DNA of 64,000 bases, from contig JBHLPL010000001.1 in NCBI GenBank assembly GCA_048939465.1, forward strand, positions 23,562 to 87,561, read 5' to 3'. Numbering within the stretch: position 1 is the stretch's first letter; the number at the start of each line of letters is the position of its first letter. A model generated the notes under the pieces. The model made no database searches, was not told the origin of the DNA, and saw only the letters and a list, made by a program, of their open reading frames with translations. Below, one piece after another: positions 32,337 to 50,100 of the stretch. The DNA comes from Promethearchaeota archaeon (GTDB lineage: Archaea > Asgardarchaeota > Odinarchaeia > Odinarchaeales > JBHLKK01). The translations under genes and the position numbers were made by a program.

Positions 32337-32744
32337 TCAAATGATCTTATTAATCTCTCTTGCGGCCCTGTCAGCTGCAATATATGCTGTTTGTGGAGAG
32401 CCTTGGCTTGTAATATAGCACATAAATAGTGCTTTTTGTCCTACGGCCGCAACAACTAAGTGCCCCATACCTTTCATGTTGGTTGCAATGAACCTATCTT
32501 GAGTAGCATTGATTGTTGAATACTTTATGCCCTGAACTACAACACTGGGCGTTTTGTTTGTAAAAGCTGAAACAATATCGGGTCCTTGAACTGTCCAGTT
32601 TTGTGTTTGGTGGATTATTCCCCCATTCATGCCAACTAATGCTGTGGCTGTTATGTTTGGATCAGACTGCATCAGGTTACTAGATATAGACGCAACATCT
32701 GCCATTATTATACCTCCGAGACCTTTCAGCTGTTTCGTTCTCAA
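32337..32744 (-). CDS. profilin
   Basis: 135 aa; alignable block-by-block to eukaryotic profilin: ATALVGMNGGIIHQTQNW ~ AAAIVGHDGSVWAQSASF; VVVQGIKYSTINATQDRFIATNMKGMGHLVVAAVGQKALFMCY ~ [42 protein letters not shown]; C-terminal helix. Confidence 0.6.
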   Translation of the reverse strand: MRTKQLKGLGGIIMADVASISSNLMQSDPNITATALVGMNGGIIHQTQNWTVQGPDIVSAFTNKTPSVVVQGIKYSTINATQDRFIATNMKGMGHLVVAAVGQKALFMCYITSQGSPQTAYIAADRAAREINKII

Positions 32745-33316: not shown

Positions 33317-34276
33317 ATGACTCTTGAAGAAATGATCCTCAAGAAAAGATTGAAATATATTCTGTTTGGAGGAAAAGGCGGTGTGGGGAAAACAACCGCT
33401 GCTGCTGCGTGCTCAGTATGGGCCGCTCAACAAGGAAGAGAGACACTCATAATAAGCACCGATCCTGCACATAGCTTATCGGACAGCCTAGCTCAGGATC
33501 TAAGTGGCGGAGACATCAAAGAAGTTCGAGGGGTACCTGATCTTTATGGATTGGAGGTGAATCCTCAAAAGGAGTTCTCAAAATATCAAAAAAGCCTTGA
33601 GTCGGCTTCTGATTCTTCTGAAATCGCAGGTATCCCGGGTTCTGAATTACTTGAGGATTTGGGAGGACTTACCCCACCAGGTGCAGATGAGGCCCTAGCA
33701 TTTGCAAAAGTGCTAGAATTCATCGAAAAAAGTGAGCACGACCTCATCATATTTGATACAGCACCCACGGGTCACACCCTGCGCCTACTGAGTCTGCCCG
33801 ACCTCCTGAATAGCTTCTTTGGCAAACTTCTCACTTTTAGGCTCAGGCTGTCCAGAGTCTGGGGAAGGATTAAGAGACTCTTTGGCCGAGGGGAGGAAGA
33901 GGAGGACAGGACTCTTGAGACTTTAGAAAGACTTAAAACCACCATTGATGCGGCTGGCAAAGAACTCAAGGACGAAACGAAGACAAACTTCGTCATAGTC
34001 ATGATTCCCGAACTCATGGCTATCTATGAGACTGAGAGGCTGCTTTCGGCATTGTACGAATACGAGATTCCTGCAAGTTTTATTCTTGTAAATATGGTCT
34101 ATCCAGATATACCAGATTGTTGGTTCTGTAAGTCCAGAAAATCGATGCAGGATAAACATCTGAAGGAGATTAGAGAACTTTACGACGAGTTTACGATCAT
34201 AGAGATTCCCTTGGCTGAAACAGAGATTCGAGGAATAGAAGGATTAGAAAGGATCGGCAAAATCCTTTTCATCTAA
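33317..34276 (+). CDS. Get3/ArsA-family ATPase (tail-anchored-protein targeting factor homolog)
   Basis: P-loop GGKGGVGKTT; A-loop/switch DTAPTGHTLRLL; conserved CxxC pair (DIPDCWFCKSR) characteristic of Get3 dimer zinc site; single ATPase domain (319 aa). Confidence 0.8.
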   Translation: MTLEEMILKKRLKYILFGGKGGVGKTTAAAACSVWAAQQGRETLIISTDPAHSLSDSLAQDLSGGDIKEVRGVPDLYGLEVNPQKEFSKYQKSLESASDSSEIAGIPGSELLEDLGGLTPPGADEALAFAKVLEFIEKSEHDLIIFDTAPTGHTLRLLSLPDLLNSFFGKLLTFRLRLSRVWGRIKRLFGRGEEEEDRTLETLERLKTTIDAAGKELKDETKTNFVIVMIPELMAIYETERLLSALYEYEIPASFILVNMVYPDIPDCWFCKSRKSMQDKHLKEIRELYDEFTIIEIPLAETEIRGIEGLERIGKILFI

Positions 34277-34715: not shown

Positions 34716-35951
34716 CTAAGACTTGATTCCATGTATCGGAAAAACATCATCTTTAATTCTCTTGACCATTTTCTTTGTGTAACCAAATATGGCTCTCCGC
34801 ATGCTGGGGCTCACTTTCATGGTCGGCGTATATTGGTCAAATATTGTTTCTGGAGCTTCCTCTCCTGTCAATTCTCTGTACTCTTCACGCCAGGTGGCAG
34901 GAGCTGCTTTTGGAATAGCTGTTTCAGAAACTACAGAAACTATAATCGTCCAGACTCTTGTGGTTGCATTAATACTATAGCCGCCGCCGCCCGTTGCCAA
35001 ATACCTACCCTTTGAATGTTTATGTGCCAGGAAATGCATTGTTGCAGCAATCTCTGCATAGGCTGTTGTGGTAAGCCCTAGGTGAGCAAGCCTATCCAAG
35101 AAGTGCGCATCAGCACCGCACTGATGTACGATTACTTCCGGTTTGAATGCATCAACAAGGGGCGGAACGATTTCTCTAAACGCGTAGAGATACTCCTTAT
35201 TTGAAGTGTAGGGTTGAAGGGGAACATTCACTGAATAACCCTTCGCGTCACTCTCTCCAATATCATCGACAAAGCCTGTGCCTGGAAAAATATAGCTTCC
35301 GCTTTCATGAAGTGATATTTTCAATACTTGTGGGTTCGAGTTGAATATTCTTTGAACACCATCAGCGTGATGCGCATCTATGTCTAGATATAGAACCCGC
35401 GATATGTTGAATTTCTCAATTAAATACTGAATTGCGATCGCCACGTCATTAAAAATACAGAATCCTGATGCCTGTTCTCTTGAAGCGTGATGGAACCCAC
35501 CACCTGGATTCCACGCGTAATCGACTTCCCCGTCCATGATTAGATCAGCTGCCTTAAGTGTTGCCCCCACAGCCATCTTCCCGGCTTCATACATCCCCTT
35601 GAAAGCAGGCGTATCTCCCGTATCTAGGTAGCCCGTTCCGGAGAGACTGCCTTTGCGAATTCTCTCTATATACCTCTTACTGTGGACAAGTTCTATCTCT
35701 TCGTCAGTTGCAATTCTTGGCTCGTATAAGAAGATTCTTGGCTCATATAGGAAGACATCCGATCTTTCGAATCCTCCAATCTCCCTAAAGAGCTTATAAT
35801 GAAGTGGTATTCTCACTTGGTTTAACGGATGTAGTTTTCCGAAATCGTATTTTACAAAATCATCGCTGTAAATGAACGCGGTCTTATCACGCATTGTCTT
35901 TTCTTCAATTTTGTCGCTGTCGATGAAGGCTTTATTATACATATTCTTCAC
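34716..35951 (-). CDS. histone deacetylase-family enzyme (HDAC/AcuC/acetylpolyamine amidohydrolase-like)
   Basis: GGGFHHA, charge-relay DIDAHHADG, zinc ligands; contains an in-frame 7-aa tandem repeat FLYEPRI-FLYEPRI. Confidence 0.85.
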   Translation of the reverse strand: MKNMYNKAFIDSDKIEEKTMRDKTAFIYSDDFVKYDFGKLHPLNQVRIPLHYKLFREIGGFERSDVFLYEPRIFLYEPRIATDEEIELVHSKRYIERIRKGSLSGTGYLDTGDTPAFKGMYEAGKMAVGATLKAADLIMDGEVDYAWNPGGGFHHASREQASGFCIFNDVAIAIQYLIEKFNISRVLYLDIDAHHADGVQRIFNSNPQVLKISLHESGSYIFPGTGFVDDIGESDAKGYSVNVPLQPYTSNKEYLYAFREIVPPLVDAFKPEVIVHQCGADAHFLDRLAHLGLTTTAYAEIAATMHFLAHKHSKGRYLATGGGGYSINATTRVWTIIVSVVSETAIPKAAPATWREEYRELTGEEAPETIFDQYTPTMKVSPSMRRAIFGYTKKMVKRIKDDVFPIHGIKS

Positions 35952-36078
35952 TTTTCCATGATGAACCGATTCTACTCTCCACTTGAATGGATATAAACCC
36001 GCTGATTTGAATCACAATGCTAAATTGACAGAAAAAACTTATCAACCTTTGTGTCGAAACATTTCTTGAGGTAATAAG

Positions 36079-36864
36079 ATGAAGTGTCCCCGATGCGATT
36101 ATGAGATTTCAGCAGATCAATTAACATGCCCGCAATGTGGTTTTAGAATGACGATTGAAAAACTTGAACGCGTAATTCCCTTGCTTAGACGCCCCGTTAG
36201 AACAACTGTAGAACCGTTATCTACCCTGCAGAGACTGAAAGGGACGTTCATTTCTCCAGCTTTGACCTTCTGGAACATTTCCAAAATCCCTGACAAAAAG
36301 GGATTCTTGTTCATTTTATTCTTCAATGCACTCCTTATTTCTCTCAATTACCCCATCTTATGGACGCACATAAATGTAATAGGATCTGAAACCTTCGTCG
36401 GAATTGTAAGTCTCCACATATGGGGGAGCTTTATTGGCTTGTTTCTATCTGGCCTTGGCATATTATTGCTCGCGTGGATTCTGATCGTTTTTGCATTCTG
36501 GACAATCTCCAGAGTGACTGGAGGAAAAGGATCATATCGAGCAACCTTTCTGGTCACAAGCTATGCCTTTGCCCCTCTTATAATCGCAAGGTTAATTTCT
36601 CTGGTTGTCTTGGCAGGTGGACTCCCAAGCGTTACCATTACCGAAGCCATGGCTCCTGGAGAATTGGGCACAGCACTGATACCTTTACTCAATTCTGTAG
36701 TCTGGACTTATTCCCTTGGTGTTGAGACTTTCTTTTGGCTTTGGTCTGCACTGCTTTCTTCATTGGCAATAAGAGAAACTCAGAATACGTCAACTCTCAA
36801 AGCGGTAGTAATGGCTTACGCTGTTATCATATGCTCTCTACTAATACTTTGGACAATTCATTGA
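36079..36864 (+). CDS. zinc-ribbon-containing polytopic membrane protein (possibly Yip1-like)
   Basis: N-terminal CPRCDYEISADQLTCPQCGF zinc ribbon followed by ~5 TM helices; family assignment tentative. Confidence 0.35.
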   Translation: MKCPRCDYEISADQLTCPQCGFRMTIEKLERVIPLLRRPVRTTVEPLSTLQRLKGTFISPALTFWNISKIPDKKGFLFILFFNALLISLNYPILWTHINVIGSETFVGIVSLHIWGSFIGLFLSGLGILLLAWILIVFAFWTISRVTGGKGSYRATFLVTSYAFAPLIIARLISLVVLAGGLPSVTITEAMAPGELGTALIPLLNSVVWTYSLGVETFFWLWSALLSSLAIRETQNTSTLKAVVMAYAVIICSLLILWTIH

Positions 36865-36931
36865 AGATAGGTCTGGGAACTGGCTTGGTCCATATTTGAA
36901 AGTCCTGTAATCTCTGAAGGGCTCAAGTAGG

Positions 36932-37954
36932 TCATCGGATCATCACTATGAGTTTGATGGGACTGGCCAGATTCTTATCATTAACAAAAATGAGATCTCC
37001 TTCTTTCACTCCGGTATCTTTCAATACGATGCTATCCGGGACAATCTTGCCCTCGATAATAATCTCAGGATTCTGAAGGCCATAGGTCATTATCAGCCTG
37101 TTTTTTAATTCTTGAATGGGTTCTTCCAGGTTCACGACATATTTGACGCCTACGGTGCGGTACTTAGGACTGCAAACAACACAGCTCGGATTACGGACAA
37201 GCCTAATCTTTGTAAAAGACTGGCTCAATCCATCGTAAAATAGATAGTTGTCAAGCAGATCCTTGCGTTCTAAAATAATCTTTAGCGTTTCTTGTGCTTG
37301 GATTCCTCCGACTACTGTAGTTGTTGTGGAAATCATTGGAAATTTCTCCTTCTCTTGCTCTTTCTCTTTTCGCGCCTCTCCAGGAAGAGTACAGGCCTTC
37401 TGTAATCTTTCTTTTGGTATCAATGGTTGGCATTCCAGGCAGGGCGTTTCAAAGGGGATGATTACCTGAACGTTCCCCCACCAGCCAAATAATCCTCCAT
37501 GAATTAGAGGCTTATTCAAGTGAACACACATGGAATTCAGCCATCTGCGTGCCTCAAAAGTATCTAAGCCTTCCACGATGACCGAACTTCTCTGGTAGAC
37601 TTCTTTATCTATCGACCGCATATCCTTCATATAGGTACTTACCTTGACTTCCGGATTGAGTTTCTCAAGGAATTCCTCAGCAGCCTCCACTTTCAATCTT
37701 CCAATATCTTCTTCTCTGAAAAGTATTTGTCGGTTCAAATTCGAAAGCTCAATTGTGTCGTTGTCTATAAGAATCAACTTTCCTATTCCCATCAACGCCA
37801 GATCAAGAGCAACTACCGAGCCTAAAGCCCCCACTCCTACGACCAAAACCGTTGAATTGCGAATCAATCCTTGGTCCCATTCTTCGAGAAGTTCCTGTCT
37901 ATGATAACGACCTTCTCCTTCTTTCAAGCCTGCCCCCTCCTGAGGTGTTTCCAA
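36932..37954 (-). CDS. ubiquitin-activating E1-like enzyme (ThiF/MoeB/UBA family) with C-terminal beta-grasp-like extension
   Basis: Rossmann nucleotide motif VLVVGVGALGSVVALDLALMGIGKLILIDNDTIELSNLNRQ; catalytic region; two CxxC zinc pairs (TPCLECQ, PSCVVCSP); ~90-aa C-terminal extra domain. Confidence 0.8.
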   Translation of the reverse strand: METPQEGAGLKEGEGRYHRQELLEEWDQGLIRNSTVLVVGVGALGSVVALDLALMGIGKLILIDNDTIELSNLNRQILFREEDIGRLKVEAAEEFLEKLNPEVKVSTYMKDMRSIDKEVYQRSSVIVEGLDTFEARRWLNSMCVHLNKPLIHGGLFGWWGNVQVIIPFETPCLECQPLIPKERLQKACTLPGEARKEKEQEKEKFPMISTTTTVVGGIQAQETLKIILERKDLLDNYLFYDGLSQSFTKIRLVRNPSCVVCSPKYRTVGVKYVVNLEEPIQELKNRLIMTYGLQNPEIIIEGKIVPDSIVLKDTGVKEGDLIFVNDKNLASPIKLIVMIR

Positions 37955-38364
37955 GTAGCATACCTTTTGATATACTCTTTTACTTTCTCCTTGAATTCTC
38001 TTGGCGACTCACGCATTTCCTTTGCAGCCACTCGATTCAGAGGGTCGTGAGGGTTGGGAAAGCTCAGGACGTTTCTTATGGCCTCGATTACGCCAACTAA
38101 ATTTATGCTTGGAGACCAATCTTTCCCCAGAATGCCCAGACATATTCTTCCCTCCCTGGTGATATTTGGATGCCAAATTGGAGTCAAGAACCGAGCTTTG
38201 GGAGGTTTAAATGGATAGCTTCTGTCTACTTCTAACTCGATTTGGAAGACCCCTCCATCGTAAACACTGGTACCTAGAATGAATCCACGCCATTTTGTGA
38301 GGTCTCCACTTAGCGGTTGAAATGAAGGTTCCTCCTCCTCTATGCTCTTAGCTTCAAGTGCCAA
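37924..38364 (-). CDS. ubiquitin-conjugating enzyme E2 (UBC fold, catalytic Cys present)
   Basis: FKPPKARFLTPIWHPNITREGRICLGILGKDWSPSINL: canonical HPN motif and active-site Cys; overlaps E1 by 31 nt. Confidence 0.8.
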   Translation of the reverse strand: MALEAKSIEEEEPSFQPLSGDLTKWRGFILGTSVYDGGVFQIELEVDRSYPFKPPKARFLTPIWHPNITREGRICLGILGKDWSPSINLVGVIEAIRNVLSFPNPHDPLNRVAAKEMRESPREFKEKVKEYIKRYATWKHLRRGQA

Positions 38365-38540
38365 GCGCTCTAAGAATGCCTCTCTGTCTAAAATCTTTCC
38401 ATACCTCCCTCTGAATATGTAAAATCACAAAGAAATAAGTATGTGAAAAATATTAAAACCTTATAGTTCAGGATCGATCCTCCTGAATGATACGGCCTTC
38501 TATCCTCCAGATGAAAGATCCTAAGCGAAATAGAAAGTAT

Positions 38541-38783
38541 TTAAGGATCTCCTCCTTCGGTTCTAGTAATAAGATACACCTTATCTCTTTCGACGCACCC
38601 TGCTTCTTTAAGTGTCGTACTATCCAGCTGTTCCATACCTTTGAATGCAAGGACAAAGGTTGCTTCTGGTATACGTCTCTGTCTGGCAATTATTCTCTTG
38701 AGTTCACCGAATGAAATATTAGGCGCCACATCAAGTGTGGTCTTCATTCCACCAATTGCAGAGACAATCTCTACCTCCATCAT
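38541..38783 (-). CDS. ubiquitin-like beta-grasp protein with C-terminal GG-DP (pro-ubiquitin)
   Basis: alignable to ubiquitin over its length (MEVEIVSAIGGMKTTLDVAPNISFGELKRIIARQRRIPEATFVLAFKGMEQLDSTTLKEAG..LITRTEGG) and ends ..TEGGDP. Confidence 0.65.
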   Translation of the reverse strand: MMEVEIVSAIGGMKTTLDVAPNISFGELKRIIARQRRIPEATFVLAFKGMEQLDSTTLKEAGCVERDKVYLITRTEGGDP

Positions 38784-38798
38784 AAATCACCCCAATTA

Positions 38799-39038
38799 CT
38801 ATTTTACCATAAGATGTCTAGTGGAGAGTTTTCTTTTGCAGAAGGGACATTGGCCCTTCGTCTTAACCCATTCCAGCAGTTCAATCTTGTGAGCTTGGCT
38901 TCCGCAGTATGGACAGTATATTGTCTTCTCGCCGGGTCTTATTGGCAGAAGGCAAACGATGCACCTTTCTGGCTCCCAAAGCCACTCTCCTAAGACTCTA
39001 ACTTGCTTTATTACGAATCTGTCAGCTGCCTTCGACAT
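38799..39038 (-). CDS. Cys-rich RING-like zinc-finger protein (candidate E3)
   Basis: CIVCLLPIRPGEKTIYCPYCGSQAHKIELLEWVKTKGQCPFCK: CxxC-x12-CxxC-x4-H-x15-CxxC; paralogous to N-terminus of the next gene. Confidence 0.5.
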   Translation of the reverse strand: MSKAADRFVIKQVRVLGEWLWEPERCIVCLLPIRPGEKTIYCPYCGSQAHKIELLEWVKTKGQCPFCKRKLSTRHLMVK

Positions 39039-39181
39039 TTAGTATCTCCAAAGAAGATTAATTAAGAACACTATTAAATACTTTTGCGAATGCCCCCACT
39101 CGGGGCAGTTCAGACTCTTTGCTCTGAATTGATCATCTCCTACAGCCTTGGAATTGCAGATTAGTCGAAAAACCAACAGAG

Positions 39182-39913
39182 CTAACCCCCCAAAACCTCT
39201 TCAAACATATCAAGCAAAACATAGCGAGTTGAGGGATCAATGGCAACAGTTCCATAAGTTGGCACACCCAATAGTCTTCCCACAAGTTCTGGGTCCAATG
39301 AGTGGGGAAGGTCTTGTTTGTTTGCAATTGCAACAACCTTTGCATCAGGAACACGTTCTTGGACGAGGCTCATGATTCTCTTCCTGGTCCTGGCTACACT
39401 CGTTACAGACGAGTCCGTAACAACGATGATAATATCTGAGCCCCTGATCATTACGTCCCAGAATCGACCAAATCGTTCTTGTCCAGCGAAATCCCACACG
39501 ATCACTTTTACTGGCGTTTCCACCCCTTCGAGATTTTTGATATTGACCATTAGGGTAGGAGTATGGTTTATGGGAACTTCTTCATCAAAAAGCAATTTCA
39601 GCAGTGTTGTCTTGCCTGCACCGCCAAATCCCAAAAAGGAGACCTTAATGATCCTCATTAGCTGGCTTACGGAAAGTCTCATCTTACAGAAGGGACATTT
39701 ACCTTTGGTCTTAACCCATTCAAGTATTTCTCTTCTGTGAGCAATACATCCACAGTTTGGGCAGTCTATTGTCTTATCGTTAGGTCCTATTGGCAGAAGG
39801 CATACTATGCAATTCTTCGCTCCCACTTTTTCCACCCAGTCTTCCGATCTGTGGATATTGCAGAGCGTCAAATCGATTAGGAAATCCTGTCTCTCTTCAC
39901 TGGGCCACCTCAA
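39182..39913 (-). CDS. RING-like zinc finger fused to small GTPase
   Basis: N-terminal CIVCLLPIGPNDKTIDCPNCGCIAHRREILEWVKTKGKCPFCK; GTPase G1 GFGGAGKTTL, G3 WDFAGQERF, G4 ANKQDL. Confidence 0.7.
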   Translation of the reverse strand: MRWPSEERQDFLIDLTLCNIHRSEDWVEKVGAKNCIVCLLPIGPNDKTIDCPNCGCIAHRREILEWVKTKGKCPFCKMRLSVSQLMRIIKVSFLGFGGAGKTTLLKLLFDEEVPINHTPTLMVNIKNLEGVETPVKVIVWDFAGQERFGRFWDVMIRGSDIIIVVTDSSVTSVARTRKRIMSLVQERVPDAKVVAIANKQDLPHSLDPELVGRLLGVPTYGTVAIDPSTRYVLLDMFEEVLGG

Positions 39914-40074
39914 ATCTTACAAGATTTTGTAGCCTAACTACATAATTGACACTTGTAGTATAAAAGATTTGTGATGCGCTATTAATTCACAGCAAAGAAG
40001 TGTGTAAAACACGGTAACCCGCGGTTTCTTTGTTTAGAGTGAGTTGAAGGTACGATTAAATCTCCTTTGAGTAA

Positions 40075-40623
40075 TTGAGTACTACGAATGTTTTTAAGTA
40101 TTCTACTACAAATATGTATTGCGTTTGTGAGGGACTGAATTTGAGCAGTTCAAAGCGGAAGCAATTTGAGATAAAGCTTGAAGTAATCAAAACTCCTAAG
40201 GGTGAAGTTCCCACGGTCAAAAGCTTAAGGCAGGTAGTTATGGGTCTAAATGAATTGAATAGTGATATCGTTAATGTGAGGTCTCAGATTATGGGGGAAA
40301 TAAAGGATTTAAAGCGTGATGTTACCGCAGTAAAGAAGTTGCTTGCCGAAGAGGCGGTTACTTTTGATGCCATCAATGAGAAGTTCACAGACCTTAACAA
40401 CAGCTTGGAGTCTCTATTAAAGCAAAAAACAGATGATAAAACCCTGAAGGCTGTTAAGGGGGTAGGGGCTACTCTAAACTCTCTTGAGACTCAGCTTTCT
40501 GAAATGGCGAAAAATGTGAAAGATGGACTTGCGGAACAGGCCAAAAATGTTGCTAATGCCGTAGGCAAACTCTACCTTTTCCTTGAAAAGGCAGAAGAAG
40601 GAAAGAAGAAAAAGACCTCCTAG
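40075..40623 (+). CDS. coiled-coil protein of unknown function (start uncertain)
   Basis: heptad-rich, K/E-rich sequence; no motif recognised. Confidence 0.35.
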   Translation: MSTTNVFKYSTTNMYCVCEGLNLSSSKRKQFEIKLEVIKTPKGEVPTVKSLRQVVMGLNELNSDIVNVRSQIMGEIKDLKRDVTAVKKLLAEEAVTFDAINEKFTDLNNSLESLLKQKTDDKTLKAVKGVGATLNSLETQLSEMAKNVKDGLAEQAKNVANAVGKLYLFLEKAEEGKKKKTS

Positions 40624-40633
40624 GCCTCTCTTA

Positions 40634-41689
40634 TTATGTGTAAAATCTATCTCTCTGTCTTTGTCTCTCTTCTAAGAAACTCACAAAGTCACTTAGGGTC
40701 GGATCATTCTCAAGTTCGTCGTGAATCAGTTCGGCTACGCTCAGAATTGATGCTGCAACATGTGCCTTGACTTGTTGTGTTTTCTTGTCGTCGGGCTTCA
40801 GGAAACTCATTATTCTTTTTTGAAACTGCTGTAGAGTCAGCAACCTATCAACCAAAAGACCGAATGATTTCATAATGTTCTCTCTTGTGGCTGAAGCATC
40901 CTCCTTTATTCCTACTGCTTCCATGGCACGAAGACATGGATATAATATCTCAGAGCCAAACCAATTTACCAGAAGGCCTCTTTTGTCTATGGTCTTGAGA
41001 AAAACCGATAGTGGAATCCCAAGTTCTTTTATTCTATTCTTCGCCAGCTGGGCCGCTTTTTCTAGCCCTACTTCATGTGTGGCCTTAAGAACCCCTACCA
41101 TGATTGAACTGACGGCAATGGAAAGAACCCTCCTGAGATTGTTGGCTTCCAACAGCTTGTTGATTAGCTCCTTTGCTTCATCCAGATTAATGTCTGATAT
41201 GACAAATGATTTTACGATTTCCAAAAGCTGACCTCTGACCTCTAAGCTTTTCCCGTAACCTGTTCCGTCCAGGGCAAGTAGAGTATAGGCAGTCTCAAGT
41301 ATTTCTTTATCAAACCATTGCACGACCAGGTATTCATTTGTAACCCTTCTCAAATCTGTGGCGGTCTTAACGTCTTTGAGTATATGTGCTAGCCGTTCAA
41401 TAAACGTTTCAAAAATCGCAACTATGTATTCTTGGACATTTGCGTCTATTCCGTATCTCTTCAACTCTTTTTTTATAATCTTTCTAAAGCCGGACTCGGT
41501 TATCTCTCCCTTCAAGTATTTAATGAACGGAGCAAAAAGATCTTTTTTGAGATTGTCCAAAGAGGGCGGCTTGAGTTCCCTGACTAGCCTCTCAGTCATT
41601 CCCCACACTATGAAATAGTAGAAGTCTCCCATTGCCTTATAGTATTCGCTAGCGAATTCCTCACCCAATTGCTGCTCACCTCTCATCAA
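40634..41689 (-). CDS. hypothetical all-alpha protein (operonic partner of HerA-like ATPase)
   Basis: 351 aa; overlaps upstream ATPase gene by 14 nt, suggesting co-translation. Confidence 0.4.
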   Translation of the reverse strand: MMRGEQQLGEEFASEYYKAMGDFYYFIVWGMTERLVRELKPPSLDNLKKDLFAPFIKYLKGEITESGFRKIIKKELKRYGIDANVQEYIVAIFETFIERLAHILKDVKTATDLRRVTNEYLVVQWFDKEILETAYTLLALDGTGYGKSLEVRGQLLEIVKSFVISDINLDEAKELINKLLEANNLRRVLSIAVSSIMVGVLKATHEVGLEKAAQLAKNRIKELGIPLSVFLKTIDKRGLLVNWFGSEILYPCLRAMEAVGIKEDASATRENIMKSFGLLVDRLLTLQQFQKRIMSFLKPDDKKTQQVKAHVAASILSVAELIHDELENDPTLSDFVSFLEERQRQRDRFYT

Positions 41690-44282
41690 TGAGGTTTATC
41701 AGAGTATTCAAGAGTTCGCAGAACTTCCTGGCGTCTTCTTCGCTAGATGATACACCGACAAGAGATGCGATAGCGATTCTGTTGTTCTTTGCCGAAGTAA
41801 TGGCAATTCTCAAGTTTCCCTTTCCAGCCAAAATTACAGGTATCTCCTCATCTGATGGCACACTATCGATTGTCCAATTCTTGGATTTCAGTAAATCATG
41901 GATCTCCTGCAGGACTACTTGAGGTTCCTTGGATACTTTCTTGTGACAAGTCTTGGAATATACCTTGATATCACTTGGGAACAAATGTTCGTGATATCTA
42001 TACCTCATAAGTCTATTTAGAAATCTTTTTAACATGTCATCTGGAACATCAAGGGTCTTCGGTGCTGGTATTTCATAAGATCCGGCCGCTGCCACTTTTT
42101 CTGAGTCTTCGGGGTTGGCCCCTTCTTCAATGACTTCTTCGTCAGGTATTGCATATTCAATAAGCTTTGGAGATGCTTCTCTTCCGGCATGCTGACTTGT
42201 TCTGGGTCGAATTCTCAAAACAAATCCCCGGTTCGTAGTTAGTCTGGTTGACTGATCCATTATTATGGGGGTTCCAACTGGAAGGCTTCTTATGAAACTC
42301 GACTTTGAAATTTCTTTGGGAATCTCTGCCGGGGATCTTTTCATGAGTGCCTTAATATCATCTGCATAAGTCAAGTTGTGAGCAATCAGAATATCTACTT
42401 GAGAGAGGATACGGGCGTCAGTTGCTGCTGGTTGTTGGGTACACAACAACAGCCCACATCCCGGTTTTCTGCCTTCTTTAGCGTAATCAATGAGGGGCTC
42501 AGAAGCAATTGTCTCTCCATCTGAAGGGACTACTTGCTGGGCTTCGTCTATTAGAAGCCAGGTTACTGGTATCTTTTCTTCTATATCCCCATATCCGAGA
42601 TGTTTTGCCTCAATCGTTCTGGAGATCTTCTTTCGCTCTCTTAGGATCTTCCGTGCAAGAATCCCAACTACCAACTCCCGGATACTGTCCCCCAGAAAGC
42701 TTACATCTACTATAGTAATCTGATTTGGAACAACTATTTCGTTGAATGCTGTCCCTTTCTTAGAGAATATCCCCCATTGTTTGGCGGATTCCAGTCTAGA
42801 AATAACGGCTCTTCGAGTATCAAGTCTGAATCCTCCTTCCTTGGAAAGGATTTCCGTATCATCTTGAACGCACTTTATCATATCGTCAATAGTGTAATCT
42901 TCTCCTTTACCATCAATACGCATTCGGTTTCCATAGGCATCCACCACGGAATAGCCGTCTCTAACCTTATTGACTACTCTTCCGGTCAGAAAACCTCTTG
43001 GACTGGACTGCTCCAGTTTAAAGAGATAACACCAATCATCTGCAGTAAGCTCACCAGGCTTTATCGAGAATGCATCATCTCTTGTTTGTTCTGGAATCTG
43101 ATGGAATAATCCTACAGGAACTAGGACCTGAACGTTTGAATATCCCTCTGGGTCTAGTTTCCATTCCCCAAGATTCTCTAGCTCGTCCTTCTCCCAGTTC
43201 GGATATTTCATGCTCCAAAATATGCCCATCGGATCAACTATCACAACAGCTATCCCGAGACCACATCTAGCTAGTTCTTCAGCAATGACTCCGAGTGTGT
43301 ATGATTTTCCGGATCCCCGATGGCCGCATATGAAAATAACGTGGGGTTTCACTGCGTCTACCAGTACCTTACGGCCGAAATACCCTTTACCGCCAGCAGG
43401 TTTTTCGCAGATCCTCCCAATATACAAAGTCCCACGACATCCAAATTTCTCTTGAAATTGCTTGGTCCTCCCAACAATAACTGACTCTCCGAGACAGTCA
43501 TCAAGGAGTCTCAGCTCCTCCTTCATTGCGGGGCTGTATTCAACAGGAAACGATTCCTCCTTGAGGACTCTCATCTCCCCCCTTACGTGGTTGATGAGCA
43601 TCTGCAGTTCTTCTATACTTCTCGGAGGTATGGTCAGCATGCTTTCTATATATTTCCGAAGCTTATCCTTCTTTGGATAGTGCCCAGAGGAATATCCTGA
43701 GAGTTCCCACAGCATAAGCTCGATAGTCTCTTCTTTCGTCAGCCCCTCAAAAGGCACTGCGTCAACTGAAGCGGTGTCCAGAAATTTTGAATCACCCAAC
43801 GCGAGGTACAAAAGGAGGGACGCATTTATCCTATCGTTTCCGTCGAATTCCTTCAGCATACTGATAGCATTCTCTAGGTATCTCGGTTCTTTTTTCACGT
43901 TATATGCCTGAAGAAGTATGCGAAATCGATGTACGTCTATCTTGTTGTTAGATAGTGCGTAATCATATACCTTCTTCTCAGCCTCGTCAATATTTATTTC
44001 TAAGGCTCCCGAGGCTCCTTTCAATGCTTGAATGGTTTCCCAGGTATTCTTCAAAGGATCATCCTGAAATGCCCATTCCCCGGATGGTAATTGTGAGGAG
44101 AGAATGTCTTCGACAATGATTGATGCTATTTCCAGAAAGACAAGGTCTTTTGTCATCTGATAGACTCGTACGCATGCATCGACGAGGAACGGTCTATCAA
44201 CAGCTCTTGCGGATTCGGCACTGAAACTTGTTATGTAGTCTAGGATATGTGGTAATATTTCACATAGAGGTCTTCCATGCAA
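41676..44282 (-). CDS. HerA/DUF87-like P-loop ATPase with large novel N-terminal domain
   Basis: Walker A HVIFICGHRGSGKSYTLGVIAEEL, then VVIVDPMGIFW (HerA-like DphGEY equivalent); Walker B LLIDEAQQVVP; N-terminal ~290 aa with repeat-like SGEWAF..WETIQAL segment. Confidence 0.55.
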   Translation of the reverse strand: MHGRPLCEILPHILDYITSFSAESARAVDRPFLVDACVRVYQMTKDLVFLEIASIIVEDILSSQLPSGEWAFQDDPLKNTWETIQALKGASGALEINIDEAEKKVYDYALSNNKIDVHRFRILLQAYNVKKEPRYLENAISMLKEFDGNDRINASLLLYLALGDSKFLDTASVDAVPFEGLTKEETIELMLWELSGYSSGHYPKKDKLRKYIESMLTIPPRSIEELQMLINHVRGEMRVLKEESFPVEYSPAMKEELRLLDDCLGESVIVGRTKQFQEKFGCRGTLYIGRICEKPAGGKGYFGRKVLVDAVKPHVIFICGHRGSGKSYTLGVIAEELARCGLGIAVVIVDPMGIFWSMKYPNWEKDELENLGEWKLDPEGYSNVQVLVPVGLFHQIPEQTRDDAFSIKPGELTADDWCYLFKLEQSSPRGFLTGRVVNKVRDGYSVVDAYGNRMRIDGKGEDYTIDDMIKCVQDDTEILSKEGGFRLDTRRAVISRLESAKQWGIFSKKGTAFNEIVVPNQITIVDVSFLGDSIRELVVGILARKILRERKKISRTIEAKHLGYGDIEEKIPVTWLLIDEAQQVVPSDGETIASEPLIDYAKEGRKPGCGLLLCTQQPAATDARILSQVDILIAHNLTYADDIKALMKRSPAEIPKEISKSSFIRSLPVGTPIIMDQSTRLTTNRGFVLRIRPRTSQHAGREASPKLIEYAIPDEEVIEEGANPEDSEKVAAAGSYEIPAPKTLDVPDDMLKRFLNRLMRYRYHEHLFPSDIKVYSKTCHKKVSKEPQVVLQEIHDLLKSKNWTIDSVPSDEEIPVILAGKGNLRIAITSAKNNRIAIASLVGVSSSEEDARKFCELLNTLINLIDER

Positions 44283-44324
44283 ATGGTTTCCCCCATTGGC
44301 AGATTCAGATGTTTTCAGAAGGAA

Positions 44325-44939
44325 TCATGACCTGCTTTCCTTTAGTTTCTTAATTTCTTTTTCCAGCTCTGAGACCTTCTTCTCCGGTGCTGGAAGAGCA
44401 ATACCTGTTTCAACAGTTATCTCCTGATCGATTTCGGTCAACGTTTTTTCAATTTCCTTATCACTAATCTCTTGCGAAACCGTGATTTCGAGTCCTGATT
44501 CAGCGATCTCTTTCGACACCTCAAATTGCTGTAGCTGACCTTCAACTTCTTTAATCAATTTGGCTATCTTTGGTACCTTCACAGCGTTCTTAAGTCCCCC
44601 AAGGACGTTACGGAGACTACCTAATATTTTGGACAAATCAGTAACAGATTCGCTTTGTCTGAGTTTTACAATTAGTCCCTCTATGGTCAATCTGTAGTTG
44701 TCAATGCCAACTGCCCACTTCTGAAATTGCAGGTAATGCTTTGCGTACGTCTTTGCAGCCTCATTATTGCCCTTGATACGTTGAGTTCGAGCTTTAGTAC
44801 GGCTCTTGTCGCCTTCTCTTTCCAGTTGCATCCTTTGTCTATCGAGTTTCCGTGTGAGCAAATCCAACTGAAAAATGGCCTTCTCAAGCCTTTTTCTCTT
44901 AGACCCCCCTAACCAGTCAAACAAACGGCCTAACGACAA
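44325..44939 (-). CDS. ESCRT-III (Snf7/CHMP family; Vps2/24/46-like)
   Basis: 204 aa; basic N-terminal helices (KRKRLEKAIFQLDLLTRKLDRQRMQLERE...KGNNEAAKTYAKHYLQ) and acidic C-terminal helices with E/I-rich tail; Snf7-like charge asymmetry. Confidence 0.6.
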   Translation of the reverse strand: MSLGRLFDWLGGSKRKRLEKAIFQLDLLTRKLDRQRMQLEREGDKSRTKARTQRIKGNNEAAKTYAKHYLQFQKWAVGIDNYRLTIEGLIVKLRQSESVTDLSKILGSLRNVLGGLKNAVKVPKIAKLIKEVEGQLQQFEVSKEIAESGLEITVSQEISDKEIEKTLTEIDQEITVETGIALPAPEKKVSELEKEIKKLKESRS

Positions 44940-45100
44940 CTATTACACCTCATTAGTCACTGAAAGGTTGTACAACACACACAATTAAAGCTTACGAAAT
45001 TACATCAAATACGGCTTTTCATCACCTAAGTTTTTTAGGTTTGTTCTTCTAATAGTTAACTAGCCTATCGCAATGTCTACAGAATCCTATTTTCCTGAGG

Positions 45101-46264
45101 TTGGGATTGATGTCTGATAAGCTGTTCAAATACGCCACCCAGATGGCGAAGGAAGCTGTGAAACTTGACAAGCAAGGCAAACAGAAGCTGGCTGTACAGA
45201 AATATATTCATGCGGCCGATATCTTGATGAGGTTTCTGAAATTAACCGAGAATCCCGCACTGAGAAAAGTATGTTATGAAAAGGCGGAGCAGTATGTGCA
45301 AAGAGCTAAAGAACTACAAGGTGTAACACCAGGTCTGCCGGCAGTATCAGAAAAAGCAGCGGGGAAAGCGCTGACCAAGGAAGATCAAGCCCTCCAAGAA
45401 GCAATCTCGGATACCATAATCACTGAGAAACCAAGTGTTGAATGGGAAGACGTAGCAAATCTAGAGACGGCAAAACAAGCCTTGAGAGAGGCTGTTATCT
45501 TACCGATGCTCAGACCAGATATTTTTACTGGTGCAAGGGAACCTTGGCGTGGATTATTGTTGATCGGACCACCCGGATGTGGAAAAACACTGCTCGCAAA
45601 AGCTGTGGCGAACGAATGCAACGCAACATTCTTCAGCGCTGACGCAGCCTCTTTGGTTTCAAAGTGGCTGGGAGAATCGGAAAAACTTGTAAGCACATTA
45701 TTTACCGTTGCACGAAGTAGCTCCCCTTCCGTTGTGTTCATCGACGAAGTGGATGCTTTGGCAACAGTTAGATCGGGTGATGAGGTTGGAGGTGAGCGGA
45801 GAATGAAGACGCAGCTATTAATAGAAATGGATGGGGTTCGAAAACGAAAGGGAGAGCAAGTAGTAGTTCTTGGCGCCACGAACAGGCCATGGGATCTTGA
45901 CCCGGGTTTTCGTAGAAGGTTCGAAAAAAGAATTTATGTGCCCCTTCCTGATAAGGAAGGCCGTCGCGAGATATTTAAGATTCACGTCAGAGGAATTGAA
46001 ATAGCTTCAGATGTTGATTTTGATGAACTAGCGACTCTTACTGAGGGATACTCCGGCTCAGATATTGCGCTGATATGTAGGGATGCTGCCATGATGCCAA
46101 TACGTGAACTGGATACCGCAGGCACGTTGACTAGGAAAGATATCAAAGTTCGATCGGTAGATCGTGAGGATTTTCTGAAGTCCATGAAAAAGGTTAGGCC
46201 AACTGTTTCACCAGACGAACTGGAGAAATACGAGGAATGGACCAAAGAATTCGCATCAGAATGA
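45101..46264 (+). CDS. vps4: Vps4-like AAA ATPase (N-terminal MIT domain)
   Basis: MIT-like three-helix N-terminus (LDKQGKQKLAVQKYIHAADILMRFLKL...AEQYVQRAKELQ); AAA Walker A GPPGCGKTLLAKAVA; Walker B VVFIDEVD; second region of homology. Confidence 0.85.
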   Translation: MGLMSDKLFKYATQMAKEAVKLDKQGKQKLAVQKYIHAADILMRFLKLTENPALRKVCYEKAEQYVQRAKELQGVTPGLPAVSEKAAGKALTKEDQALQEAISDTIITEKPSVEWEDVANLETAKQALREAVILPMLRPDIFTGAREPWRGLLLIGPPGCGKTLLAKAVANECNATFFSADAASLVSKWLGESEKLVSTLFTVARSSSPSVVFIDEVDALATVRSGDEVGGERRMKTQLLIEMDGVRKRKGEQVVVLGATNRPWDLDPGFRRRFEKRIYVPLPDKEGRREIFKIHVRGIEIASDVDFDELATLTEGYSGSDIALICRDAAMMPIRELDTAGTLTRKDIKVRSVDREDFLKSMKKVRPTVSPDELEKYEEWTKEFASE

Positions 46265-46278
46265 ACTGGTGATATATA

Positions 46279-47025
46279 TTGTCGGTAAGGGAAAAGCCAC
46301 GTAAAAAAGCTGGGAAGTCTCAAAAGGAAGAAACTGACAAGAAGGAGCGAATCAAAGAAGAGCTTGAGGAACTCAAGGAAGAAGTTGAAACAATGGTGGA
46401 GGCAGAAGAAGCTGAGACAATAGAAGAGGTTGAGAAAATCCAAGAGCCTAGCGCTAGGCAACTTCCGAAGGCGGTTGCTGAGGAAATCTCCTCTGAATTG
46501 GAGAAGATCTGTAACTTATATGAATGGGTTGCAAATCCTGAACAAGTCAGATGGATGTATTGGATGCCCTCCAATAAAGAGCATATTGATTCATGGAGAG
46601 ACGAATGGGCTGATTTCTTGTTTCAATGGGCCCGAGCAAAAATCCTTCATATAGTAACACTGGTCTTGCTTATGGGTGAACACCCATTTGATAAGTTATC
46701 TCCAAAGGTGGATTCGCTGAGAGTTATTATGAAAACCCTAGCTGAGAAGGATCTTGCTGAATTCTTGGATAATAAAGAAACCAGATTGCGAATATACTGG
46801 AGGACTCTTAATGAGTGGGCAGAAATAATCTATAACTGGGCACTCAATACCGGAAGAATGGATATAAGTGTTTTTGATGTTATTAATGACAGAGGGGAAA
46901 AGTGGGGCTTTCACACGCTGCCAGCGAAAGAAATTAGACTCATCTTCAGGATTATGGTAGAGCGTGGGTTGGCCCGTTGGATGGACGAGAAGAGAGGCCA
47001 TATTGAGATAAGAGTAGACTTTTGA
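46279..47025 (+). CDS. Vps25-like ESCRT-II subunit (tandem winged helix) with acidic N-terminal extension
   Basis: IYWRTLNEWAEIIYNWALNTGRMDISVFDVIND ~ human VPS25 IMWRRPEEWGKLIYQWVSRSGQNNSVFTLYEL; C-terminal HTLPAKEIRLIFRIMVERGLARWMDEKRGHIEI ~ HGLDEATLLRALQALQQEHKAEII..DGRGVKF. Confidence 0.6.
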   Translation: MSVREKPRKKAGKSQKEETDKKERIKEELEELKEEVETMVEAEEAETIEEVEKIQEPSARQLPKAVAEEISSELEKICNLYEWVANPEQVRWMYWMPSNKEHIDSWRDEWADFLFQWARAKILHIVTLVLLMGEHPFDKLSPKVDSLRVIMKTLAEKDLAEFLDNKETRLRIYWRTLNEWAEIIYNWALNTGRMDISVFDVINDRGEKWGFHTLPAKEIRLIFRIMVERGLARWMDEKRGHIEIRVDF

Positions 47026-47145
47026 CCTGTCTTTCGCGGTTATGCACCATCTAAGCGGATTATCTTGCGAAAATCTTAAATCTTTTTATGTGAATATTAT
47101 AACAGATCACGCGTAACTCCGATTCATGGATTAGATTAAGATGAA

Positions 47146-50100
47146 GTGGTCGTCATGCAAGCCAAAAGAAAAAATCTGCTAATATCTCTGGTCTTCACAC
47201 TATTTCTGATCTCAACGCTCTCATCAATTACAGTTCCACCCGTCACAGCTTCTCCAGATACTGCTGACTGGTGGAATTATAACTGGAATCAGAGGGTTCC
47301 AGTGATGATAAACACAACAGGTCACAACACATCCGACATACCGATAAAGATCGAAGGAATTAATTTCACTCAGCTTCTACTGGATCTGGGTGTCGGCTCT
47401 CCCCACGATAATAACTCGGTAAGAGTCGTGGAGTGGAACGTAGCATCGGAACTGAACACTGAATTACCGAGCTTATTTGCTCCTGCAGGCACGTATGACA
47501 GCTCCAGCAATGCTGTAGGTGATGTTTACTGGACAATGAATGGAACAACACTTGAAAACACAAACAGAACCTTCTATGTATACTTCGATACTACTGATGC
47601 TCCTGGTGGTCCCAAGAGCCCACCAAGCTACAGTGTGGATCCTCGTCTACCTGAAGGAATAGCCTATGTAAGAAACGCTAAGGACGATATATCTTATGAA
47701 TCGGCCCAACAACTTGCTGCGGAATATGGGCTCGCCCAAGCTGCACTGTTCAATGAAAGCGTGAAATCAGGAAGTCATTACAGGAGCGGATCGGGTTGGC
47801 AAAACAACAGTATAGATCTCGTACCTGATGACTACTCAATGATAATACTTGGGTCAGACTCCCTAGACGGTGGCGAAATACCTGGAAAACTCGATATAGA
47901 CTCCCAATTCAGATCAAACTTGGAAGCTTTCATTGCTGGCGGCGGGATACTTGTTATTCAACAGATAACGTCAAGCGATCCTGCCCAGCCACTGACTGGA
48001 ATTCAGTTCACAAGCTCTCACGGAGAAAGCTATAAGAAACCACTGCAACAGCACGAAATCACAACTAATCCAAACAATATTCGAACTGAAAATCTCAATT
48101 CGCTTTCAGATGGATTTGATAAAATTACGGACTCTACTCGCTACTCTTCGATAGCCAACGTGACAGATAACGGCGGAGGTCCAACAGGCCATCGAATCAG
48201 AATCATTCAGAGAGGAGCAGGCTATGTTATTGTAGAGGTACTGGGATGGACCTCAACTGGCGATATAGATAAGTGGAAACAGATCTTTGAAAACTATCTG
48301 AATTATCATATCAACCACACAAAGGATAGTCTGGCCATAACCGTTGGCAGCCAAGCAGAATATAGTCTGATTAACGATGTTACCGTAGTTGTAACAAATC
48401 ATGAAGGATTATTCGTTCCTGACGCAAATGTTACTATGGTCAACACGACAGCCCAGGCAAACAATCTTAGTGGCTACAACCAATGGGCATTAACAGATAG
48501 CAACGGCCAAGTTTTCTTCCCGGATGTACCAGATAACAACTATAATGTTACGGCAACTTACGTAACTAACATGGGAGATAGCACCGGAATTCTGAACGAT
48601 ACATTTTCAAACTTCAACATCAATTATACTCAAACCCTCAATCTTAAAGTAAACATTACAAGGCTATTAGTGAACATCACTGATGTAGATAATATGACCC
48701 AGTATGATCTGATACCTAACTGGGCAGAACATTATATCGTTGGCCTTTTCAACCAGTCCGATGGGAGTCCGATGGCCAACACAACGACAACAACCTTGTA
48801 CGAGTCTGGTGGTATTAACTGGCTTGTAGGAGAACTCTGGTGGCATAATTCATCGGACAATCATGTGATCAAAGTATTGTATGAGCATCCTGATTATTCG
48901 AATACACTGACTCTTAACGAGACTAGTAACATACAACTTGATGTTTCGACTTCCTTCAACGTCAACGTCAGTATGACAAGGCTGACTGTTTTTGCCCGTG
49001 GGTATCCGACCATCGATCCGCTTGTTAATGTGGTTCTTGAGTTGAGCAACGATACGCAAGCAATAGCTAATGTCACAGCAGACGATTCAGGAGCGGTAGT
49101 CTTCTACTGGAGGACTCAACCCTCGCAGAATTACTCTATACGCGCATTCTACTTCGATACACTGGTCTCATTCATCAAATTCCATGAAAGCTGGTCTGAT
49201 TGGAATGAAAGCGTTAGCCTACCACTTCCAAATGCTACCGAAAAGCTGATTGATATTCAGCTGGGTGCGGAGTATGAGACGGATCTTGTACTAACTGCTT
49301 TTACCCCCGACGTCACGTATGGGGATAACGTAACGGTCACCGTGTATTTCAATGTCACAAGTCCTTCGCCAAGACCCGTAACTGGAGCAACCGCCAGATG
49401 CTACCTCAGAGTGGGAACAACAGATATCTTTATGGAAACAATGACTGAGGCAGGTTCCGGATATTATACACTGACATTCAACACGACTCACTACGGTGGC
49501 ATAATAGGCGATGAAAACATAGAATATCGTATCTTAGTAATTGTTGAAAAATCAGGGTATACCTCTCCTACGCCGATATTCACCGACCTGACAATCAGGG
49601 GGCTCGCAACAACTTTGGATTGTTCAATCTCACCAGAAACCATTTACTGGGGCGACCTCATAACAGTAGACGTTACGTACGAGGATTTGGAGGACGCAAC
49701 AGTCTCATACATAATTGGAAGTTGGGATTCTGGCGTATTCAGTGATCTTGGAAATGGAAACTACCGCACCTCGATAGACACCTCTAAATCGTCCTTCTGG
49801 GGAGACTACATATTAAAAATAACTGCCGAAAAGCCGAATTATGAAATGAAGTACGCAGAAATAGCTCTTAGAATCAATCAGATACAGACTCTGATAAACG
49901 GATCTCGTATACTTGTCACATCACCCATCAGCGTGTATGCAATGGAAGACAGTTTAATACACTTCAACTACACAACAGCTGGCAATATCGGCATCAACTC
50001 GACAGTCCATCAGTACTACTGGGAGAGCATATCAAGCGGTAGTGGCTACGGAGACTTGTCTTATCTTGGGAACGGTATGTATGGGCTGGATTTTGATACT

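Follow-up and report, generated by a model that had tools for sequence, protein, structure and literature searches.

The 64,000-nucleotide stretch of DNA analysed here (64 kb; the window in what follows) comes from contig JBHLPL010000001.1 of a Promethearchaeota archaeon and contains a ubiquitin cassette at positions 36932-39913. Five open reading frames (ORFs) lie there in the same direction on the minus strand and encode an E1 ubiquitin-activating enzyme, an E2 ubiquitin-conjugating enzyme, a ubiquitin precursor, a small RING protein, and a second RING joined to a small GTPase (Table 1). These five genes had been claimed in an initial annotation made from the sequence letters alone. ORFs were found at all five positions, and the family proposed for each of the proteins was borne out by Pfam profile searches. 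The closest homologues belong to metagenome-assembled genomes (MAGs) named Hodarchaeota or Promethearchaeota archaeon, which agrees with the attribution of this DNA to Asgard archaea. [quoted passage not shown] It is one end of a large ubiquitin-ESCRT supercluster of an already published type. The RING::GTPase fusion is a lineage-specific addition, one unusual feature of an otherwise known cluster.

The region from 36001 to 47100 is 99.8-100% identical to contigs independently assembled from four public sequencing runs and is therefore not an assembly artefact. All five cassette genes are real and under purifying selection, with ratios of nonsynonymous to synonymous substitution (dN/dS) of 0.04-0.16 against two relatives (synonymous divergence about 0.8-1.4). 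The fusion evolves faster than the remaining four genes (dN/dS 0.15); its amino acid identity to relatives is 68-70%, compared with 86-91% for the others. Gene order is unchanged in four related MAGs (L005-L008). Moreover, a core made up of RING, ubiquitin, E2, E1, and a Yip1-family gene is kept in two more distant Asgard contigs (L018 and L019), where synteny was taken from E1 homologues. A scan of GTDB genomes with the E2 alignment, in which N-terminal patterns were used, mostly recovered UEV-Vps23 paralogues (L012-L017). An E2 orthologue with 51% identity was found on a 7.6-kb contig of Heimdallarchaeota CSMAG_823 (L011). No E1, ubiquitin, RING, or Yip1 was detectable beside it on the whole of that contig, so the module is not always kept together.

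The cassette had also been described as one operon-like block holding a full conjugation pathway. The complete gene set and its single direction were upheld; the single block may instead be as many as three transcription units, to judge from three TATA-like boxes. These boxes precede the E2, small RING, and RING::GTPase genes, and they are near-identical in the window, L005, and L008, with the remaining spacer sequence diverged. Such conservation suggests that they are archaeal promoters, in which case the units would be the fusion, RING-ubiquitin, and E2-E1.

The modifier was confirmed as a ubiquitin-like protein ending in GG-DP. It matches Pfam ubiquitin with 29.0 bits (gathering cut-off 25.4) and has a dN/dS of 0.04-0.10. 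Its nearest solved structure is the Caldiarchaeum ubiquitin-like protein (2mqj/6fj7/6fnn/5zew; E about 2e-11). For single-copy ubiquitin chains in the PDB, E ranged from about 1e-3 to 1e-2; the smaller values returned there for ubiquitin are sums over polyubiquitin repeats. It had been considered that this ORF might instead belong to the MoaD/ThiS sulfur carriers and have no E3 partner. Neither Pfam nor NCBIfam gave a ThiS or MoaD match up to an E of 0.1, and the cassette contains two RINGs. In all relatives the Gly-Gly is followed by two residues, and their nature differs (DP in the window, HP and HT in relatives), as would be expected for a tail that is removed.

The E1-like activating enzyme is supported by a Pfam ThiF match of 228 bits (E 1.1e-67), with the adenylation domain at about 37178-37888. 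Two CxxC zinc motifs and an invariant crossover-loop cysteine, Cys179 (37391-37393), were found, and this cysteine pattern is unchanged across 56 Asgard homologues. At the C-terminus lies an E2-binding ubiquitin-fold domain of the UBA3 type (36935-37156). The nearest solved structures are eukaryotic E1s; an adenylation domain followed by an E2-recruiting C-terminal ubiquitin-fold domain is common to the window protein, the NEDD8 E1 (UBA3), and canonical eukaryotic E1s. Unlike the canonical enzymes, the window E1 has neither separate catalytic-cysteine (FCCH/SCCH) domains nor a second, inactive adenylation subunit. It is presumably homodimeric, and, like that of MoeB, Uba4, and Uba5-type enzymes, its candidate catalytic cysteine lies in the crossover loop. 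Four relatives (L005-L008) begin E1 at a TTG homologous to position 37927 of the window (LKEGEGRYH), with GGAGG 8 nucleotides (nt) upstream. The window E1 therefore most likely starts there as well, giving a protein of 331 amino acids (aa) and a 4-nt TTGA overlap with the E2 stop. The 31-nt overlap originally reported was a product of choosing the longest ORF. In relatives E1 and E2 are 2 nt apart.

The description of the E2 as carrying an HPN motif and a catalytic cysteine was likewise correct. The protein matches UQ_con with 130 bits (E 6e-38); in the numbering of the listed 146-aa form, its HPN spans residues 65-67 and its cysteine is residue 75. Profile searches gave a UBC fold and not the non-UBC fold that had been named as a possible outcome, with UBE2E1 (E 5e-27) and UbcH5 as the nearest solved relatives in the PDB. 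Further analysis concerned the 5' end of this gene. Conservation of the reading frame extends 10 codons 5' of the listed TTG (ILDREAFLER), with synonymous changes only in L005 and L008 (38365-38409). In more distant orthologues the N-terminus that pairs with these upstream codons reads MLSEEDYW; in two of them (L018 and L019) the ATG aligns exactly with an ATT/ATA codon at 38394-38392 of the window, and GGAGG is found 9 nt upstream of this candidate ATT start. The E2 thus probably initiates at AUU/AUA, which would give 156 aa and restore the N-terminal end of helix alpha-1. Pfam does not tell the two forms apart, the UQ_con score rising from 130.0 to 130.3 with the 10-residue extension. An out-of-frame mini-ORF of four codons (ATG GAA AGA TTT TAG) overlaps the candidate start. 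A programmed frameshift or an upstream mini-ORF is a less likely explanation of this 5' end because the out-of-frame NTG is ATG, TTG, and CTG in three genomes, and the AUU/AUA start is preferred because the in-frame Ile codon falls at exactly the place where the distant orthologues have their Met.

The Cys-rich finger encoded upstream of ubiquitin proved to be RING-like, with a zf-RING_2 score of 29.5 bits (cut-off 27.3) and a Prok-RING_1 score of 23.5 bits. When the family profile was compared with the PDB, the solved RING-H2 ligases RNF24 (E 8e-8), EL5, Arkadia, RNF165, and RNF38 were recovered, and these alignments put the predicted zinc ligands in cross-brace order. Seven of the ligands are Cys or His; the sixth position is Glu. 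In the family alignment this Glu is found in both RINGs of this clade, whereas other Asgard orthologues have His. The small RING retains its E2-contact residues (I27, W57, P65) and the linchpin K68. The N-terminal extension is also conserved (RF[VI]I..V..G.W.W), and by analogy it corresponds to the UEV-binding N-loop of Helarchaeia. A full HMMER scan with the RING profile yielded 1146 representative proteins as relatives; among the best 150 of these, zf-RING_2 was matched by 115 and Prok-RING_1 by 105.

As had been proposed, the same finger is joined to a small GTPase in the fifth gene. Over 54 residues the fusion RING shares 67% identity with the small RING next to it (E 5e-25), and Pfam scores for the fusion are 73 bits for Arf (cut-off 22.3), 60 for Roc, and 49 for Ras. 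The length of 243 aa was corrected to 214 aa: a 29-codon upstream extension is broken by stop codons in relatives, and the start was therefore placed at the GTG at 39826. All E2-contact positions are retained in the fusion RING (Ile, the helix Trp, Pro after the seventh ligand, and Lys after the last Cys), and the N-terminal extension of the small RING is absent. The G1-G4 motifs, near-invariant across 62 aligned sequences, are those of a Ras-superfamily small GTPase. An AlphaFold2 model (predicted local distance difference test score 79.8) has an Arf/Arl-like G domain. Foldseek comparison of this model with the PDB placed Arf1 and Arl1 (probability 1.00) and the Asgard proteins GerdArfR1 and HodArfR1 on top; because the whole model was searched, the GTPase dominates the result, which carries no information on the RING. 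Hallmarks of the Arf family proper are missing, G3 being DFAGQ (Rab/Ras-like) and not DVGGQ. The last zinc ligand and strand beta-1 are no more than about 10 residues apart, which puts the RING at the place that the N-terminal helix takes in Arf proteins. Because the RING occupies the N-terminus, there is no room for a membrane-inserting amphipathic helix.

The RING::GTPase architecture is rare. A RING was present in 5 of the 120 best-listed clusters of fusion homologues (P0001-P0005; best 120 of 535 at E <= 0.001), a GTPase domain was present in 1 of the 150 best RING relatives, and no description of this architecture was found in the literature searched. In four MAGs the fusion gene lies directly upstream of the ubiquitin cassette. 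The fusion GTPase is 59% identical (BLASTP) to a longin::GTPase encoded in the same window, whose family is the likely donor of the G domain. The simplest history is a local RING duplication that was joined to a G domain of this family, since both RINGs have the clade-specific Glu and the GTPase has its close paralogue nearby. As a separate observation, the window fusion ends in EEVLGG (39182-39190), like a ubiquitin-type Gly-Gly terminus. This is probably coincidental because the 99.5%-identical L001 copy ends in LGV and distant relatives in FGI.

Table 1. Coordinates of the cassette genes, their domains and putative promoter elements, and of neighbouring genes in the window.
Feature	Position	Strand	Remarks
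E1 ubiquitin-activating enzyme	36932-37927	-	331 aa with the most likely start; longest ORF to 37954, 340 aa
E2 ubiquitin-conjugating enzyme	37924-38394	-	given with the probable start; listed ORF 37924-38364, 146 aa, TTG start
Pro-ubiquitin	38541-38783	-	80 aa; ends TRTEGGDP; Gly-Gly at residues 77-78
Small RING-H2-like E3	38799-39038	-	79 aa; zinc ligands C26, C29 / C42, C45 / H50, E53 / C64, C67
RING::small-GTPase fusion	39182-39826	-	214 aa, GTG start; longest ORF to 39913, 243 aa
Fusion RING domain	39671-39817	-	ligands C6, C9 / C22, C25 / H30, E33 / C44, C47
Fusion GTPase domain	39185-39655	-	G1 GFGGAGKTT, switch-I T91, G3 WDFAGQ, G4 NKQD
TATA-like box	38445-38460	-	upstream of E2; conserved
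TATA-like box	39071-39087	-	upstream of small RING; conserved
TATA-like box	39958-39973	-	upstream of RING::GTPase; conserved
Yip1-family membrane protein	36079-36864	+	Pfam Yip1 57 bits and N-terminal Zn_Ribbon_1; convergent with E1
351-aa protein	40634-41689	-	no family match; between ubiquitin genes and ESCRT-III
HerA/DUF87-like ATPase	41676-44282	-	868 aa; Pfam DUF87 52 bits; PADLOC hits of HerA type only
Snf7	44325-44939	-	Pfam Snf7
Vps4	45101-46264	+	Pfam MIT, AAA, Vps4_C
Vps25	46279-47025	+	Pfam ESCRT-II
1318-aa protein	47146-51102	+	sole match CarboxypepD_reg; between Vps25 and Vps22/36
Vps22/36	51176-51922	-	Pfam EAP30
Vps28	51923-52729	-	Pfam VPS28
UEV-Vps23-like	52751-53548	-	Pfam UQ_con/UEV and CdvA-like coil
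Longin::GTPase	57903-58760	+	285 aa; Fuz_longin_1 and Arf/Roc/Ras; closest paralogue of the fusion GTPase
Vps36-like protein	59839-61644	+	GLUE-type match
Second Snf7	62280-62927	-	Pfam

Genes for ESCRT-I, ESCRT-II, ESCRT-III, and Vps4 were all found by Pfam within 44.3-62.9 kb of the window, with Snf7 and EAP30 matched by two genes each. The ubiquitin cassette adjoins such a set in the window, L001, L005-L007, and L019; in L018, a Hodarchaeota contig, no ESCRT genes lie within 8 kb of the RING-ubiquitin-E2-E1-Yip1 module. The most constant neighbour of RING, ubiquitin, E2, and E1 is the Yip1 gene, found at the corresponding place in L005-L008, L018, and L019. The 351-aa protein and the HerA/DUF87-like ATPase are encoded with a 14-nt overlap and also occur as a pair in L001 and L005-L007. 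In L005-L007 the 1318-aa protein is kept at the same place.

The clustering of ubiquitin and ESCRT genes in Asgard archaea has been described previously (Hatano et al., 2022, PMC9192718; Makarova et al., 2024, PMC10936438). In Helarchaeia the E1, E2, and RING E3 were found to ubiquitylate the steadiness box of UEV-Vps23 in vitro, and the N-loop of the RING binds the UEV domain; for the Hodarchaeia cluster, the same study also notes Yip1 together with a 'Rab-like GTPase' (bioRxiv 10.1101/2023.07.25.550441). The window shares with the Asgard clusters a pro-ubiquitin with a short tail, an E1 of about 330 aa, a UBC E2, and a small RING with an N-terminal loop, as well as the clustering with UEV-Vps23, Vps28, Vps22/36, Vps25, Snf7, and Vps4. 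Unlike the published clusters, it has a second RING joined to a GTPase, Glu in place of His as the sixth ligand in both RINGs, and an E2 that appears to start at AUU/AUA. The HerA-like ATPase and the 351-aa protein that separate its ubiquitin genes from ESCRT-III are a further difference. In Caldiarchaeum subterraneum (Aigarchaeota), whose ubiquitin is the nearest solved structure to that of the window, the E1/E2/srfp cascade and the trimming of pro-ubiquitin by Rpn11 have been reconstituted (Hennell James et al., 2017, PMC5654768). Its operon has an adjacent Rpn11 gene, whereas none was found in the 64 kb examined here, and the ubiquitin tail has 9 residues there and 2 in the window. Linkage to ESCRT-I/II genes and the extra RING::GTPase also set the window cassette apart from that operon.

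Among eukaryotes, TRIM23/ARD1 is the one well-known case in which a RING is combined with an Arf-like GTPase (PMC6724607). As in the fusion, an N-terminal RING E3 and a C-terminal Arf-like GTPase are part of one chain. However, TRIM23 has 574 aa with B-boxes plus a coiled coil; the fusion has 214 aa and no B-box or coiled-coil family match. In addition, the fusion GTPase is closest, among the matches listed, to Asgard longin::GTPases and not to eukaryotic Arfs. The fusion is most likely an independent, convergent analogue of TRIM23 and not a member of that family. Asgard longin::GTPases ('Rag-like') have a G domain akin to that of the fusion, and the fold of this domain resembles that of the Asgard ArfR GTPases (for longin::GTPases and ArfR: bioRxiv 10.1101/2020.10.19.343400 and 10.1101/2024.02.28.582541; PDB 8oum, 8ouk). 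In the fusion a RING is found in place of the longin domain or the Arf amphipathic helix.

From these similarities a mechanism can be proposed. The ubiquitin precursor would be trimmed to Gly-Gly by a protease encoded elsewhere, as the Caldiarchaeum and Helarchaeia systems suggest. The MoeB-like domain of E1 would adenylate the C-terminal Gly, and a thioester would then form on the crossover-loop Cys179. The E1 ubiquitin-fold domain would dock the E2, and ubiquitin would pass to the E2 cysteine that follows HPN. The small RING would bind the ubiquitin-charged E2 (E2~Ub) through I27, W57, P65, and K68 and promote transfer to lysines. By analogy with Helarchaeia, the likely target would be the ESCRT-I subunit UEV-Vps23, whose gene lies 14 kb away, and the N-terminal extension of the small RING may serve as the substrate-binding loop. 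The duplicated RING, carried with almost no linker on a G domain of the longin::GTPase family, would provide a second, lineage-specific ligase. Through this fusion the position or activity of the ligase could depend on whether GTP or GDP is bound, perhaps at membranes by way of Yip1.

Several points weigh against this scheme. The enzymatic activities of the cassette proteins are predicted from homology, and the targets, the processing protease, and the GTP gating are likewise predicted. The absence of a JAMM/Rpn11-type protease from the window, already noted in the initial annotation, held in a motif search: H.H.{5,10}[SAT]..D is absent from every frame of at least 80 aa. No JAB/MPN, UCH, USP, OTU, or C48 family was detected by Pfam in about 57 window ORFs, several of which are without any family match and could include a novel protease. 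The 64 kb thus offers no candidate from these families for the trimming step. The Glu at the sixth ligand position could weaken the first zinc site of both RINGs. As for the fusion, its RING scores 25.5 bits, just below the zf-RING_2 cut-off of 27.3, and the cassettes of L018 and L019 are without the gene, which the pathway can therefore do without. The proposed GTP gating draws on the architecture and the short linker, and the link between the GTPase and Yip1 on analogy with the eukaryotic Yip1-Rab interactions.

Different functions for the whole cassette were also considered. It is quite unlikely that the cassette serves mainly proteasomal degradation or general turnover, with the proximity of ESCRT genes being incidental. 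Such a role would fit Caldiarchaeum, which is without the Asgard ESCRT-I/II set and has the same operon type beside an Rpn11 homologue (PMC5654768), and the L018 module, which has no ESCRT genes close by. It fits poorly with the adjoining ESCRT-I/II/III and Vps4 genes in the window and the other contigs named above, with the lack of any proteasome gene among the window ORFs in Pfam scans, with the in vitro ubiquitylation of ESCRT-I UEV-Vps23 by the Helarchaeia cascade, and with Yip1, a membrane-traffic family, as the most constant neighbour. A sulfur-carrier or SAMP-type system, in which a MoaD/ThiS modifier and a MoeB/ThiF/UbaA E1 would act in molybdopterin or thiamine synthesis or tRNA thiolation, was rejected as extremely improbable. 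The E1 scores fall far below the NCBIfam cut-offs (MoeB 164 versus 449, ThiF 155 versus 275, SAMP E1 UbaA 137 versus 450), the modifier matches ubiquitin and not ThiS/MoaD, and no molybdenum cofactor or thiamine genes are adjacent. The UBC-fold E2, the two RINGs, and the UBA3-type E2-binding domain of the E1 effectively refute this reading. A bacterial-type anti-virus system for conjugating ubiquitin-like proteins (CBASS Cap2/Cap3, Bil, 6A-MBL) was suggested by PADLOC E1-E2 (Cap2) and BilD models that match the E1 adenylation domain at E down to 9e-25, by a weak NCBIfam 6A-MBL cap2_3 match of 52.6 bits, and by the adjacent HerA-like ATPase. However, the PADLOC matches are confined to the generic ThiF core of E1, with no model matching the E2, ubiquitin, or either RING, and the 6A-MBL score is far under its cut-off of 320. 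E1 and E2 are also separate proteins, no JAB protease is present, and the neighbours are ESCRT genes and not nucleases or cyclases. This origin was dismissed as equally improbable, and a eukaryote-type pathway linked to ESCRT sorting is preferred.

The role of the fusion is less certain. It may be a GTP-switched ubiquitin ligase, an independently evolved archaeal counterpart of TRIM23; we regard this as a tentative and rather doubtful reading. The nucleotide state would then control its access to E2~Ub or its recruitment to membranes, perhaps via Yip1. Eukaryotic Yip1 proteins interact with Rab GTPases. Nucleotide control of the RING is suggested because it takes the place of an Arf N-terminal helix or longin domain. 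The fusion may alternatively not be a ligase, its zinc finger serving only to dock or dimerise a trafficking GTPase; the finger might, for example, tether the GTPase to E2, ubiquitin, or the small RING with no catalysis. The sub-threshold RING score and the Glu at one ligand position point in this direction, as do the missing substrate-binding extension, the faster evolution of the fusion compared with the other four genes, and its absence from more distant cassettes. Against it, the same Glu occurs in the small RING, the only other E3 candidate of the conserved module, and the E2-contact residues are all kept in the fusion RING. An 86%-identical orthologue (P0002) passes the zf-RING_2 cut-off with 29.1 bits, and the position upstream of the ubiquitin cassette is conserved in four MAGs. 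A purely docking role is considered rather unlikely.

The cassette is another well-preserved case of the ubiquitin-ESCRT linkage that is thought to predate eukaryotes, and in this respect the findings are confirmatory. The corrected starts are useful for reconstitution: if the E2 does begin at AUU/AUA, the listed form would be made without 10 N-terminal residues and so without the beginning of helix alpha-1. Likewise useful for such work are the UBA3-type domain on a minimal 331-aa E1 and, in both RINGs, the Glu that takes the place of the sixth zinc ligand. If the fusion were an active, nucleotide-regulated E3, it would offer a two-domain model for the coupling of GTPase switches with ubiquitylation in membrane trafficking. 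A GTP-switched ligase would also mean that small-GTPase signalling was wired to ubiquitin-dependent ESCRT sorting before eukaryotes, near the eukaryotic stem.

Other parts of the window were also surveyed. Scans for tRNA genes and Rfam families over the 64 kb returned nothing. Besides the longin::GTPase, the window encodes several Ras/Arf-like GTPases. Two adjacent Ras/Rab-like GTPases are encoded at 5090-5755 and 5831-6349 on the minus strand (Pfam Ras E 2e-50 and 2e-54); they are characteristic of the small-GTPase expansion in Asgard archaea. Eukaryote-signature genes include those for a profilin (32337-32744, minus strand), a Get3/ArsA-type ATPase (33317-34276, plus strand), and, next to a UbiA prenyltransferase, a VTT-domain (DedA/VMP1-like) membrane protein (55807-56649, minus strand). 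Finally, a histone-deacetylase-family protein (34716-35951, minus strand) contains an exact tandem repeat, FLYEPRI FLYEPRI, at residues about 66-79, which suggests a recent duplication of 21 nt.

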